Source of the DNA: a virus
Lineage: Duplodnaviria; Heunggongvirae; Uroviricota; Caudoviricetes
Virus record (IMG/VR): IMGVR_UViG_2585427755_000007
DNA: 5,176 nucleotides
Reading direction: 5' to 3' (one strand)
The notes beneath the pieces are model-generated. The model was given only the letters and a program-made list of their open reading frames with translations, had not been told where the DNA came from and did not search any database. Below are positions 1 to 5,176 of the stretch, piece by piece. The position numbers were made by a program, and so were the translations under genes. How positions within the stretch are numbered: position 1 is the stretch's first letter; each line of letters opens with the position of its first letter.

Positions 1-107
1 CCCCTACTCCGGTTTTCGAGACCGACCCGATCATCAAACGAAACATAAAATTAGCTCACATTATGAGGAAAGGTATCTTTTTGCGCTATGTAAATTCAAA
101 GGGTTAG

Positions 108-977
<870 letters not shown>

Positions 978-999
978 GTCTTTAAGTGATAAGCATAAA

Positions 1000-1048
1000 C
1001 CGCAGCACGATCTTCTTGCATACGACGTGCTACGGTTTCATTTATCTC
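1000..1048. terminator. Candidate bidirectional hairpin between the convergent GIY-YIG and invertase genes
   Basis: Stem CCGCAGCACG (1000..1009) pairs with CGTGCTACGG (1026..1035) across a 16-nt loop (one C-A mismatch on this strand, a G-U wobble on the other), followed by T-rich TTTCATTTATCT. Weak by eye; overlaps the invertase stop. Confidence 0.3.
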
Positions 1049-1592
1049 CGACCGGAAACTTCTTATACAGTGTCGATATACCAACATCATAGATGATCGC
1101 CACCTTCTGGCGAGGAACGCCTGATGCAATTAATCGTCCGGCCTGCTCCCATTGTTCTGGTGTAAGTTTGGGGCGACGTCCACCAATTCGTCCCTGTGCG
1201 CGAGCTGCTTCCAGTCCAGCTTTTGTTCGTTCAACAATCAGTTCACGCTCCATTTCAGCCAGGGCACCCATCACATGAAAGAAAAAGCGCCCCATTGGGG
1301 TACTGGTATCAATTGAATCCGTCAGACTACGAAAGTTGATGCCTCGTTCGCGCAACTCCTCCACCAGCACGACAAGATGCCGCATACTGCGCCCCAGTCG
1401 GTCCAGTTTCCAGACCACCAGCGTGTCACCTGCCGATAATGTCCTGAGCAGCTTTTTCAGTCCTGGTCTGTCGGACTTTGTACCGCTTATCTTGTCTTCA
1501 AAAATCAGCTCACATCCTGCACAGTTCAGCGCATTACGTTGTAGATCTGTGTTCTGGTCATTTGTTGACACACGTACATAGCCAATAAGCAT
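1038..1592 (-). CDS. pinE: Serine DNA invertase, Hin/Gin/Cin/Pin family (184 aa)
   Basis: N-terminus MLIGYVRVSTNDQ carries the catalytic Ser motif of small serine recombinases; conserved LVVWKLDRLGRS and GRFFFHVMGALAEMERELI blocks; C-terminal HTH (GVPRQKVAIIYDVGISTLYKK). The 184-aa length and the neighbouring tfa/stf cassette resemble e14 PinE; the exact paralogue (pinE versus gin/cin/pinQ/pinR) is not certain. Confidence 0.9.
   Translation of the reverse strand: MLIGYVRVSTNDQNTDLQRNALNCAGCELIFEDKISGTKSDRPGLKKLLRTLSAGDTLVVWKLDRLGRSMRHLVVLVEELRERGINFRSLTDSIDTSTPMGRFFFHVMGALAEMERELIVERTKAGLEAARAQGRIGGRRPKLTPEQWEQAGRLIASGVPRQKVAIIYDVGISTLYKKFPVGDK
1477..1577. promoter_or_regulatory. Predicted Fis-dependent recombinational enhancer inside the invertase 5' coding region (approximate)
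   Basis: In Hin/Gin/Cin systems the enhancer lies in the first 100-200 bp of the invertase gene. The 5' coding DNA here (GTGTCAACAAATGACCAGAACACAGATCTACAACGTAATGCGCTG, as read in the 3585..4139 copy) resembles what I recall of the hin 5' region. Fis sites not mapped. Confidence 0.25.
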
Positions 1593-1646
1593 GAGAAATA
1601 ACCCTGTAAAAATCCGGGATCATGCCATCTGAGCCGAATAACTGCA

Positions 1647-1672
1647 TTTTCTAAAAGGTTGGTTTGGGAGAA
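1647..1672. promoter_or_regulatory. 26-bp pix/gix/hix-like crossover site: TTTTCTAAAAGG-TT-GGTTTGGGAGAA
   Basis: Two imperfect 12-bp inverted half-sites around a 2-bp core (1659..1660). The inner half-site, read on the opposite strand as TTCTCCCAAACC, is close to the gix/hix half-site TTATCCAAAACC / TTCTTGAAAACC. The site sits 54 bp upstream of the invertase start and exactly at the repeat/cassette junction. Confidence 0.7.
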
Positions 1673-2017
1673 GCGGCAAAGAGGAATGTGGGGACAGGAG
1701 AAAATCAGGTACCGGATATGAACAGCTTTGGTAACTCATTGACCGCCAATGGATACCAGAAATTACCTGGGGGGATGATTATTCAATGGGGGAGTTTTTC
1801 TGTCTCACCAACCGGAGGAAGTGTTGGAACAGTTGATATAACATTACCTGTAGCTTTCCCTGCTGCTTGTCGTTCGGTAAACGCTCTTATTTCAACTAAT
1901 GATCCTTCTGCCCGTTCTGTGGGCTTTGATATTGGAAGTACCAACAGAACTAAAATCAGATTTACTTACACTTCTGCTACACCAAATTCAATTTACTGGA
2001 TGGCTGTGGGGTATTAA
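1664..2017 (+). CDS. Tail-fibre C-terminal variable segment (Sv), a start-less cassette exon; frame open from 1655
   Basis: Frame is open from the TAA at 1652..1654; the M in the ORF track is a TTG; first residues KVGLGE are encoded by the crossover site. Followed 2 nt later by a tfa gene. Tail-fibre assignment rests on position and organisation, not on a recognised domain. Confidence 0.55.
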   Translation: MGEAAKRNVGTGENQVPDMNSFGNSLTANGYQKLPGGMIIQWGSFSVSPTGGSVGTVDITLPVAFPAACRSVNALISTNDPSARSVGFDIGSTNRTKIRFTYTSATPNSIYWMAVGY

Positions 2018-2019
2018 CT

Positions 2020-2451
2020 ATGGAAAAGACATATTATTTTAATCCCTCTGATTCGGGATTTTATATTTCACCAGATAGCCAAACCATTCCTGAGAACGCT
2101 ACGAAAATAAACTTTACTATTTATTCTGAGTTCGCAGGAGTTGCATGGCCTGATGGTAAAATACTTGGTTCAGATAAAAATGGTTTTCCAGCATGGCAGG
2201 ATGCGCCACCACTTACCAGCGAAGAATTAATCTCAATCGCTGAATCAAATAAACAGCGATTAGTTAATCAGGCCAACGAATACATGAACAGTAAACAATG
2301 GCCTGGTAAAGCGGCGATTGGTCGTCTGAAAGGTGAGGAACTGGCGCAATATAATTTGTGGCTGGATTATCTGGACGCACTGGAACTGGTCGATACTTCC
2401 AGTGCGCCAGATATTGAATGGCCTACTCCTCCGGCAGTTCAGGCCAGATGA
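2020..2451 (+). CDS. Tail fibre assembly protein (Tfa/U family, 143 aa)
   Basis: ATG at 2020, 2 nt after the Sv stop. C-terminal motif LWLDYLDALELVDTSSAPDIEWPTPP is the conserved Tfa C-terminus. Confidence 0.8.
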   Translation: MEKTYYFNPSDSGFYISPDSQTIPENATKINFTIYSEFAGVAWPDGKILGSDKNGFPAWQDAPPLTSEELISIAESNKQRLVNQANEYMNSKQWPGKAAIGRLKGEELAQYNLWLDYLDALELVDTSSAPDIEWPTPPAVQAR

Positions 2452-3025
2452 CATCCGGCGCGGTACTGGTATCTGTTGCCGTCACCGCGTCAATGTAATC
2501 CAGCACAGTGTTAAGTCGGGTGGTCTCTGCCTGCATCAGCTTCCGCCCGGCCTGCAATTTCAGTTGAATCAGACTAATGGAAGCCATTGCAGTATCAATC
2601 AGTGACTGACGTTGTGCTTCTGCCGCGTCTACTGCGGCGCTATGCTGTGTCTCAGTATCCGTCACCCATTTCTCACCATCCCATTTATCGTATGGCGTTA
2701 ACGGGGCGATAGTGGTTGTTTTTTCGGGGTAATCACCCGGAGTTGTGATTTCTTTGGCGTCTCCCGTTTCGGTGTTATAGACGATTTCACCGCGATGGTC
2801 TGGTACATATTCCCATGAGTTAAAATCTGCAGAGCGGCAGATTGCATAACCAGCTTTGTAGGTGCCTGGAGCATCTAAACAGGAATATGCCGGAATGCCG
2901 ACACCAACAGCAAGATATTCAGTTGAAGCTGAAATATACTCCCGACTCATGACGTCAAAGTTATAAACAGTAATTTCTCCTGCCATAGTGGCAATTAATT
3001 CACTGTTTAATTCTGCGTTATTCAT
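2423..3025 (-). CDS. tfaE: Tail fibre assembly protein (Tfa/U' family, 200 aa), TfaE-like
   Basis: C-terminal motif VLDYIDAVTATDTSTAPDVIWPELP. Start ATG shares a base with the upstream stop (TAATG at 3023..3027), indicating translational coupling to Sv'. The 200-aa length matches what I recall for e14 TfaE. Confidence 0.8.
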   Translation of the reverse strand: MNNAELNSELIATMAGEITVYNFDVMSREYISASTEYLAVGVGIPAYSCLDAPGTYKAGYAICRSADFNSWEYVPDHRGEIVYNTETGDAKEITTPGDYPEKTTTIAPLTPYDKWDGEKWVTDTETQHSAAVDAAEAQRQSLIDTAMASISLIQLKLQAGRKLMQAETTRLNTVLDYIDAVTATDTSTAPDVIWPELPEE

Positions 3026-3513
3026 TATGCAGCCCTCACAATATAGTTAAAAGCGACATTTCGTGGGCGTGTTTCATTCGCACCTGCAGGTTTAGTCGTT
3101 GCCGCAACAACACCACCCTCTGTAATAGCCTGGTTGGGAATTGGGTAATTATCGAAGTCAATGGCCGGAGACAGGGGCGTGATTTGTTTTAAAATCGTGG
3201 TGCCTGAAAAACTTCCCAGAGTCTGGTCGTTAGTTCGTGAAGTCCAGATTCCCCAATAGTGGTTATGACTGACAATCGCACCGTCCTGAAGCGTTAATAA
3301 TCCCCTTCCGTTATCCACTCCACGTCCGTCATCCCAGCCACGAATAAACTCACCGCGTAAATCAGGCAATTTATTTGTCGGGTAAGCCTTTGCCAGTTCC
3401 GGGTATTCTTCAGCAGAAAAAGCCGCACCGTTGCATTTCAGCCAGCCTGTCGGCGGGGGGGCTGAAGGCCACGGAACAGGGACACCAACAGGTAATGCAG
3501 AGCCTTCTCCCAA
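3025..3513 (-). CDS. stfE: Tail-fibre C-terminal variable segment (Sv'), StfE-like start-less cassette exon; frame open to 3522
   Basis: Contains a phage-tail-collar-like block (LPDLRGEFIRGWDDGRGVD) and ends ...RPRNVAFNYIVRAA, typical of Mu S / P1 S-type fibre tips. Annotated start is TTG; the frame begins inside the crossover site with the same KVGLGE residues as Sv. About 165 aa, close to the roughly 166-aa e14 StfE fragment. Confidence 0.7.
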   Translation of the reverse strand: MGEGSALPVGVPVPWPSAPPPTGWLKCNGAAFSAEEYPELAKAYPTNKLPDLRGEFIRGWDDGRGVDNGRGLLTLQDGAIVSHNHYWGIWTSRTNDQTLGSFSGTTILKQITPLSPAIDFDNYPIPNQAITEGGVVAATTKPAGANETRPRNVAFNYIVRAA

Positions 3514-3530
3514 ACCAACCTTTTAGAAAA
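3505..3530. promoter_or_regulatory. 26-bp pix/gix/hix-like crossover site: TTCTCCCAAACC-AA-CCTTTTAGAAAA
   Basis: Mirror of the 1647..1672 site, core at 3517..3518, 54 bp upstream of the invertase ATG at 3585. Confidence 0.7.
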
Positions 3531-3584
3531 TGCAGTTATTCGGCTCAGATGGCATGATCCCGGATTTTTACAGGGTTATTTCTC

Positions 3585-4139
3585 ATGCTTATTGGCTATG
3601 TACGTGTGTCAACAAATGACCAGAACACAGATCTACAACGTAATGCGCTGAACTGTGCAGGATGTGAGCTGATTTTTGAAGACAAGATAAGCGGTACAAA
3701 GTCCGACAGACCAGGACTGAAAAAGCTGCTCAGGACATTATCGGCAGGTGACACGCTGGTGGTCTGGAAACTGGACCGACTGGGGCGCAGTATGCGGCAT
3801 CTTGTCGTGCTGGTGGAGGAGTTGCGCGAACGAGGCATCAACTTTCGTAGTCTGACGGATTCAATTGATACCAGTACCCCAATGGGGCGCTTTTTCTTTC
3901 ATGTGATGGGTGCCCTGGCTGAAATGGAGCGTGAACTGATTGTTGAACGAACAAAAGCTGGACTGGAAGCAGCTCGCGCACAGGGACGAATTGGTGGACG
4001 TCGCCCCAAACTTACACCAGAACAATGGGAGCAGGCCGGACGATTAATTGCATCAGGCGTTCCTCGCCAGAAGGTGGCGATCATCTATGATGTTGGTATA
4101 TCGACACTGTATAAGAAGTTTCCGGTCGGAGATAAATGA
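3585..4139 (+). CDS. pinE: Serine DNA invertase, Hin/Gin/Cin/Pin family (184 aa), identical second copy
   Basis: Protein identical to 1038..1592(-). Candidate RBS AGGG about 9 nt upstream of the ATG. Transcribed away from the invertible segment, as pin/gin/cin are. Confidence 0.9.
   Translation: MLIGYVRVSTNDQNTDLQRNALNCAGCELIFEDKISGTKSDRPGLKKLLRTLSAGDTLVVWKLDRLGRSMRHLVVLVEELRERGINFRSLTDSIDTSTPMGRFFFHVMGALAEMERELIVERTKAGLEAARAQGRIGGRRPKLTPEQWEQAGRLIASGVPRQKVAIIYDVGISTLYKKFPVGDK
3600..3700. promoter_or_regulatory. Predicted Fis-dependent recombinational enhancer inside the invertase 5' coding region (approximate)
   Basis: Mirror copy of 1477..1577; same reasoning. Not mapped. Confidence 0.25.
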
Positions 4140-4177
4140 AACCGTAGCACGTCGTATGCAAGAAGATCGTGCTGCGG
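4129..4177. terminator. Candidate bidirectional hairpin between the convergent invertase and GIY-YIG genes (mirror copy)
   Basis: On this strand: CCGTAGCACG (4142..4151), 16-nt loop, CGTGCTGCGG (4168..4177), then TTTATGCTTATC. A 10-bp stem with one G-U wobble. Confidence 0.3.
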
Positions 4178-4199
4178 TTTATGCTTATCACTTAAAGAC

Positions 4200-5069
<870 letters not shown>

Positions 5070-5176
5070 CTAACCCTTTGAATTTACATAGCGCAAAAAG
5101 ATACCTTTCCTCATAATGTGAGCTAATTTTATGTTTCGTTTGATGATCGGGTCGGTCTCGAAAACCGGAGTAGGGG

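Follow-up and report, generated by a model that had tools for sequence, protein, structure and literature searches.

Recombinases of the Hin/Gin/Cin/Pin family bind as dimers to two 26-bp sites, cut at the central dinucleotide and invert the segment that lies between them. The family depends on a Fis-bound recombinational enhancer in cis, usually located in the 5' part of the invertase gene, and the synapse formed with Fis and the enhancer strongly restricts these invertases to inverted sites on one and the same molecule. Three systems of the Din family, Gin/G of Mu, Cin/C of P1 and Hin/H of Salmonella, have, like the locus described here, a small serine recombinase with a C-terminal helix-turn-helix (HTH), 26-bp imperfect-dyad sites and a 2-bp core, and the two phage members, Gin and Cin, also switch the C-termini of tail fibres together with their chaperones. 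They are, however, separate elements with other site sequences (the consensus of the Din-family sites is quoted in Table 3 of PMC4134206). The element underlying our locus belongs to the Pin/e14 branch of the Hin/Gin/Cin/Pin switches, with which its recombinase, its sites and the occurrence of both orientations all fit. The reference system of that branch is the P-segment/PinE switch of e14 in E. coli K-12 (Plasterk and van de Putte 1985, as cited in PMC4272514), of which both orientations coexist in clonal cultures (PMC4272514).

Such segments have caused difficulties in genome assembly before. The invertible tail-fibre segments of EC958 gave rise to extra contigs with the alternative orientation, and the same paper warns of "artefactual duplications in phage regions" (PMC4134206); the graph topology of an "invertible segment", which fixes neither its orientation nor its flank partners, has also been described (PMC5103826). 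In EC958, as would be the case here, a single culture contained the segment in both orientations, and neither its orientation nor its flanks could be resolved from short fragments. The outcome there was additional contigs in the alternative orientation, whereas here it is a perfect palindrome that folds back into the same flank. The subject of this report is a crossover site that appears twice, as a mirror image, each time next to an invertase gene. We consider it very probable that the mirror copy is a short-read assembly fold-back and that the sites at 3505-3530 and 1647-1672 are the same physical invertase-side site.

The contig and its crossover sites

The window, by which we mean the whole stretch of 5,176 nt that was analysed, is the complete contig JOSJ01000022.1 (range 1-5176) of the draft E. 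coli assembly GCA_000713655.1. A repeat search found positions 1-1673 and 3504-5176 to be 100% complementary over 1673 nt, out to both ends of the window and around a unique centre of 1830 nt, so that the perfect inverted repeat spans to both ends of a whole draft contig, as a fold-back does. The features are the following.

1-1673: left repeat arm, with att fragment, GIY-YIG gene (204-977, plus), pin (1038-1592, minus), 54-nt spacer and site
1-24: mirror of the serU-derived 24 nt
204-977, plus strand, and 4200-4973, minus strand: LEM-3-like GIY-YIG gene
1038-1592, minus strand: identical second copy of pin
1647-1672, minus strand: mirror copy (reverse complement) of the TTCTCCCAAACCAACCTTTTAGAAAA site, centre 1659-1660
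1664-2017, plus strand: Sv, tail-fibre C-terminal part, Gp53-like_C, 117-aa gene call
1674-3503: invertible segment, 1830 nt, with two convergent pairs of tail-fibre C-terminal part and assembly gene
2020-2451, plus strand: tail-fibre assembly gene beside Sv
2423-3025, minus strand: second tail-fibre assembly gene, beside Sv'
3025-3513, minus strand: Sv', tail-fibre C-terminal part, Collar domain, 162-aa gene call
3504-5176: right repeat arm, with site, spacer (3531-3584), pin (3585-4139, plus), GIY-YIG gene (4200-4973, minus) and att fragment
3505-3530, plus strand: 26-bp Pin crossover site of the invertase-proximal (pixR) type, TTCTCCCAAACCAACCTTTTAGAAAA (pattern scan and comparison with native loci)
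3585-4139, plus strand: pin, 184-aa serine DNA invertase with Resolvase and HTH_7 domains (PF00239, PF02796)
5153-5176, plus strand: start of the att fragment, which duplicates part of a tRNA gene of the host; these final 24 nt correspond to positions 29-52 of tRNA-Ser(CGA) serU (comparison with K-12 serU)

The TTCTCCCAAACCAACCTTTTAGAAAA sequence occurs exactly twice in the window, with 0 matches expected from 200 shuffles, and allowing as many as 3 mismatches brought no further match in the window. The site at 3505-3530 is made up of the inner half TTCTCCCAAACC, the centre AA (3517-3518) and the outer half CCTTTTAGAAAA; with the invertase ATG at 3585, the spacer of 54 nt is 3531-3584, and the mirror site is likewise 54 nt from the minus-strand ORF at 1038-1592. 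A preliminary description of this DNA had reported the same 26-bp site in inverted copy with an invertase start 54 bp from each, and both statements are borne out by the sites at 3505-3530 (plus) and 1647-1672 (minus) and by the ORFs at 3585-4139 (plus) and 1038-1592 (minus). The general anatomy is that of an invertase switch, with two inverted 26-bp imperfect-dyad sites with AA cores bounding a segment, and with a small serine recombinase that has an N-terminal resolvase domain and a C-terminal HTH. The two sites are, however, the innermost 26 nt of a single 1673-nt inverted repeat and hence not independent events, so what exceeds chance is the whole arm and not the site. A scan of the 5' part of pin gave no match to a strict Fis-like pattern, and the five matches to a loose G-N13-C pattern in 3505-3800 do not have the diagnostic spacing. 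The window was traced to JOSJ01000022.1 through its two rarer gene products, the 162-aa Sv' and the 117-aa Sv, and this contig is the sole carrier of the 117-aa call in the record collection.

The likeness to e14 extends over most of the switch. The window shares with it the inner half-site with the central AA (TTCTCCCAAACC-AA), the 54-nt spacer between site and pin and the convergent layout of the segment (Sv-tfa and tfa'-Sv'), and the pin product, which keeps the N-terminal YVRVSTNDQ motif, matches K-12 PinE at 177 of 185 aligned positions (stop counted). The native relatives of the window also have the tail-fibre-side site of e14 (GGTTTTCGAGAG). One difference, namely that the window has the invertase-side site at both ends and no constant part of the tail fibre (Sc), is attributed to misassembly. 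Others are true differences: the underlying prophage has a LEM-3-like GIY-YIG gene where e14 has mcrA, its att is derived from serU while e14 lies at icd, and the outer half of its site is CCTTTTAGAAAA compared with CGTTTATGAAAA in e14. This outer half matches that of e14 pixR at 9 of 12 positions and that of pixL at 7 of 12, and the 54-nt spacer matches the flank of pixR at 34 of 54 positions and that of pixL at 13 of 54. Both sites of the window are thus closer to pixR than to pixL, as the preliminary description had held, and the comparison with the e14 flanks that it had proposed gave the left site the pixR-type flank that it had predicted.

The arrangement at the two ends has consequences for the tail-fibre genes. 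Both sites being of the invertase type, neither lies inside a tail-fibre reading frame in the window as written. Both Sv frames are shut by a TAA that lies in frame within the outer half of the invertase-type site (…CIF*KVGLGE…), so that no complete tail fibre can be read from the window, whichever way the segment is turned. The TAA (1652-1654 and 3523-3525) is in frame with whichever Sv copy faces pin, which closes the silent copy to any reading that enters from the side of pin. In the frame where the invertase-type site has TAA, the tail-fibre-type half-site codes for ENL, and the native frame runs through the site as …TALENLGLGE-AAKRNVG or …TALENLGLGE-GSALPVG.

Native loci and the two flip states

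Native sites were compared in a set of 13 loci that included e14 of K-12. The invertase-side site always consists of TTCTCCCAAACC-AA followed by CGTTTATGAAAA, CCTTTTAGAAAA or, in L006, CGTATATGAAAA, a one-base variant of CGTTTATGAAAA; it continues into TG(C/A)AG… and lies 54 nt from the invertase start in the ten loci with identical Pin and in e14, for which the distance was checked. The tail-fibre-side site, TTCTCC(C/A)AAACC-AA-GGTTTTCGAGAG followed by C(C/T)GTTT…, is present inside the tail-fibre frame in 11 of the 13, and in L016 and L017 the frame reads …ENLGLGE… through it; GCTCTCGAAAACCTTGGTTTGGGAGAA is the constant part of the tail fibre running into a site of this type. In L008 and L009 a scan that tolerated 2 mismatches in the inner half and AA together detected no tail-fibre-side site. 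These two loci keep the usual gene layout, and their second site may be more diverged. The pairing of an invertase-proximal site with one embedded in the tail fibre, which the preliminary description had called canonical, is thus what the native loci have, with a distinct tail-fibre-side site in 11 of 13, e14 included. Natural pixL sites with an invertase-like flank, which would have spoken against its reading, did not appear; the flanks found are tail-fibre coding and the outer half is GGTTTTCGAGAG.

The site of the window with its flank is identical to the invertase-side site of native loci L010, L016 and L017, and the right arm as a whole is 99.76% identical to L010 over 1667 nt. There are at least two diverged alleles of the stretch made up of outer half-site and 54-nt spacer (window 3519-3584 and 1593-1658): the window, L010, L016 and L017 have CCTTTTAGAAAA followed by TGCAGTTATTCGG…, and most other loci have CGTTTATGAAAA followed by TGCAGAAATAACG…, while Pin is identical across L003-L012. 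The diverged spacer alleles may reflect different promoter or regulatory regions of pin.

The native gene order in finished genomes is baseplate genes, ymfQ, tail fibre and assembly gene, then the opposed assembly gene, partial tail fibre, pinE and GIY-YIG gene, with one invertase. All ten of the listed long contigs with identical Pin (L003-L012) have a single pin, with the site at 5921-5946 and the pin start at 6001, i.e., 54 nt. The far side of the segment holds baseplate or tail-fibre genes in nine of these ten contigs, and in L007 a transposase interrupts. IS elements (IS3 family, IS26 and a DDE transposase) were seen in or beside the segment in H1 (NZ_CP146653.1), H4 (NZ_CP070920.1) and L007 (2922-4130), the last of which has about 3.2 kb between its tail-fibre-type and invertase-type sites. 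Protein look-ups placed Pin in 3416 blocks and the GIY-YIG protein in 655 blocks, so that both are too widespread to point to the source of the contig. An identical 257-aa GIY-YIG protein also adjoins tail modules that have no pin, in L015 beside a lambda-like tail fibre of 1024 aa and in L019 beside an acyltransferase.

Two native loci account for the entire window between them. L016, on a 311-kb contig of another assembly, corresponds to window 1-3518 with 4 mismatches (99.9%), and L017, on a 341-kb contig of another assembly, corresponds to window 1659-5176 with 3 mismatches (99.9%); each has one pin, and beyond the far site both continue into Sc, ymfQ and baseplate genes. The two differ in flip state. 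In L016 it is Sv' that continues the constant part, with Sv directed toward pin, and in L017 the two have exchanged places. Both orientations therefore exist in nature, with Sv toward pin in L016 and L021 and Sv' toward pin in L017 (99.8-99.9% identity to the window over 3518 nt each), and H2 and H5 show the same among finished genomes. The matches of L016 and L017 each break off at the AA in the middle of the far site, the point at which the constant region of the tail fibre begins: past it, the native sequence is GGTTTTCGAGAG-CCGTTTTCACCGTGCC… (tail-fibre coding), whereas the window has CCTTTTAGAAAA-TGCAGTTATTCGG… (pin flank). Every local stretch of the window is thus natural, 1-3518 as in L016 and 1659-5176 as in L017, and the long-range combination alone is not. 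Since the two matches overlap on window 1659-3518 (1860 nt), any window fragment of up to about 1.86 kb fits one natural state, and only longer-range information could reject a walk from pin through the segment to pin.

These contexts also bear on how the mirror copy was interpreted in the preliminary description, where the left junction was taken to have been created by copying the right one. What is copied, however, is the entire 1673-nt flank out to the contig end, and neither junction was "created": the junction pin-site/Sv is natural in L016 and L021, and the junction Sv'/site-pin is natural in L017. Only the co-occurrence of both junctions on one molecule is unnatural, and the copying is best explained as a computational fold-back walk and not as a biological event.

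A different join was seen in L026 (JNNF01000123.1, GCA_000700605.1), a draft contig of 2108 bp in which the interior of pin, at about codon 30, is joined to the constant region of the tail fibre. The join (1190-1440, corresponding to window ~1501) is abrupt and shows no microhomology, and the last ~200 nt of the constant region then lead into the tail-fibre-type site and Sv'. This contig is either a larger real inversion or deletion that destroyed pin or another chimeric contig.

Origin of the mirrored site

The prophage from which the contig came would be an E. coli prophage with Mu-like baseplate genes, an ordinary Pin/e14-type tail-fibre switch and a serU-derived att fragment, and its real order would be baseplate, ymfQ, Sc, tail-fibre-side site, [Sv, tfa / tfa', Sv'], invertase-side site, pin, GIY-YIG gene and att. 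Pin would invert the 1.83-kb segment at the central AA, so that either Sv or Sv' joins Sc in frame. The sequenced culture was most probably mixed for orientation, in which case the reads would hold all four junctions and both ends of the segment would link to both flanks in the assembly graph. An assembler could then have taken the path from the invertase flank through the segment into the reverse complement of the same flank, and such a path would yield a palindromic contig of 5176 bp with two copies of pin and two invertase-type sites. A collapse of repeats was considered as the cause and rejected: the exact identity between native sites extends over only about 15 nt (one flanking C, the inner half and the central AA), and since a k-mer assembler would not be misled by so short a stretch, the fold-back requires reads from both flip states. 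A point that counts against the fold-back is that assemblers often break at a true four-way junction, and the artefact needs a permissive or unlucky resolution.

The ends of the contig are compatible with a short-read assembly. The prophage terminates in a 62-nt copy of the 3' part of serU (att fragment; 5718-5797 in L016 and 7570-7640 in L003). Where the window stops, L003, L006, L012, L016 and L017 continue into the rest of the serU 3' part, and the remaining native loci diverge 6 nt earlier. A contig that ends within a prophage-boundary repeat is a normal short-read stop and a typical graph break, and a break after 24 nt of the repeat would be compatible with a de Bruijn graph of k = 25. 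Neither the window nor the end of L003 gave a tRNA with ARAGORN, as only the 3' part of serU is present; Rfam likewise gave no tRNA match and a single match below threshold, to Plastid-psbl-rps4, a family that we take to be antisense to plastid tRNA-Ser. The carriers of pin and the GIY-YIG gene that diverge 6 nt earlier adjoin Dcm/EcoRII, AraC-type or other genes, and the pin/GIY-YIG module thus occupies several genomic contexts.

A layout with two invertases was found nowhere else. No single place with at least 80% of the window exists in any of the complete E. coli genomes (5426), phage records (50,697) and plasmid records (72,556) that were searched. Among the finished genomes this is not for want of related elements, as 3254 of the 5426 match the window partly. 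The exact junction patterns had no match in viral_contigs or JGI metagenome contigs, which places the source of the contig outside those collections. The best matches in finished genomes cover 68% of the window (one arm and the centre), and they have their end at 3518 or 3527, or else their start at 1659 or 1650, all positions inside the sites. The layout is thus absent from finished genomes that carry the related element, which is a further mark of a fold-back.

Another public record shows the same segment, probably mis-rendered by an assembler. NZ_CP148396.1 (L027), a circular record of 1830 bp named "plasmid pZ1323HEC0010-6", corresponds to window 1674-3503 end to end with 99.1% identity, and it contains neither a crossover site nor a replication gene. 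The chromosome of the same strain is absent among the 100%-identity matches, and the segment seems to have been left out of it; the record is probably an assembly-graph artefact in PLSDB and RefSeq. It differs from our contig in that the segment stands alone as a circle, without site or flank and without a fold-back into the pin flank.

The most plausible real route to the contig is homologous recombination within the segment between two prophages in opposite flip states. Two prophage copies would have exchanged within the 1.83-kb segment and inverted the interval between them, giving the hybrid pin'-site-segment-site-pin and the reciprocal Sc-site-segment-site-Sc'. Such an exchange would leave invisible breakpoints because it takes place within the shared segment, a short-read assembler would be expected to put out just such a contig, and polylysogeny of related elements does exist, as related complete genomes hold up to 12 places that match the window. 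The equal length of the two arms might be brought forward as proof of an artefact, but we reject it: a real inverted duplication would assemble identically, since real arms of 1673 nt would be merged into a single node and the contig would end at the divergence of the flanks, so equal lengths do not discriminate. We nevertheless regard this rearrangement as very unlikely. It would have to be missing from all 5426 finished genomes although 3254 of them carry related loci, it needs arms of 1673 nt that are 100% identical when independent native loci differ by 0.2-4.6%, and the hybrid locus that it leaves would not yield a whole tail fibre whichever way the segment lay.

An in-silico or library chimera that has nothing to do with inversion, produced by fold-back fragments or by a scaffolding or merging error that appended a reverse-complemented contig, is to our minds equally improbable. 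Perfect palindromic contigs are a known class of artefact, and the authors of PMC4134206 checked the ends of their contigs for hairpin artefacts. The turn-around seen here is not random, however; the centre is bounded by crossover sites and both junctions are natural, which is what an inversion graph predicts and what disfavours a random chimera.

A real palindromic duplication that created a functional "double-invertase" cassette, through template switching or through intermolecular recombination by Pin of two sister chromosomes that differ in flip state, is hardly credible: identical inverted sites each next to an intact pin would make inversion chemically plausible by the known mechanism, but by analogy with the family its topological restriction argues against intermolecular exchange by Pin, exchange between sister chromosomes would yield a head-to-head dimer chromosome, both Sv copies are headless and offer no selectable output, and the layout is absent from all finished genomes and all phage and plasmid records searched.

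Meaning of the duplicated site

Taken together, we give very little credence to the idea that the isolate carries a real pin-site-[Sv tfa / tfa' Sv']-site-pin cassette, derived from two prophage copies or sister chromosomes that were oppositely flipped. If it did, inversion would continue but without a link to any constant part of the tail fibre, and a flipping cassette with two invertase genes and no expressed output would be a curiosity and not a new mechanism. The preferred reading remains the assembly fold-back, and the feature that drew attention to this contig, the presence of two identical invertase-proximal sites on a single molecule, is best regarded as not real.

The underlying site and switch are already known from the textbook Pin/e14 system and are of little biological weight. 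The finding matters more as a caution, since invertible prophage segments produce palindromic contigs, duplicated invertase genes and pseudo-plasmids in public assemblies, and scans for odd switch architectures should check first for a perfect inverted repeat that extends to both contig ends.
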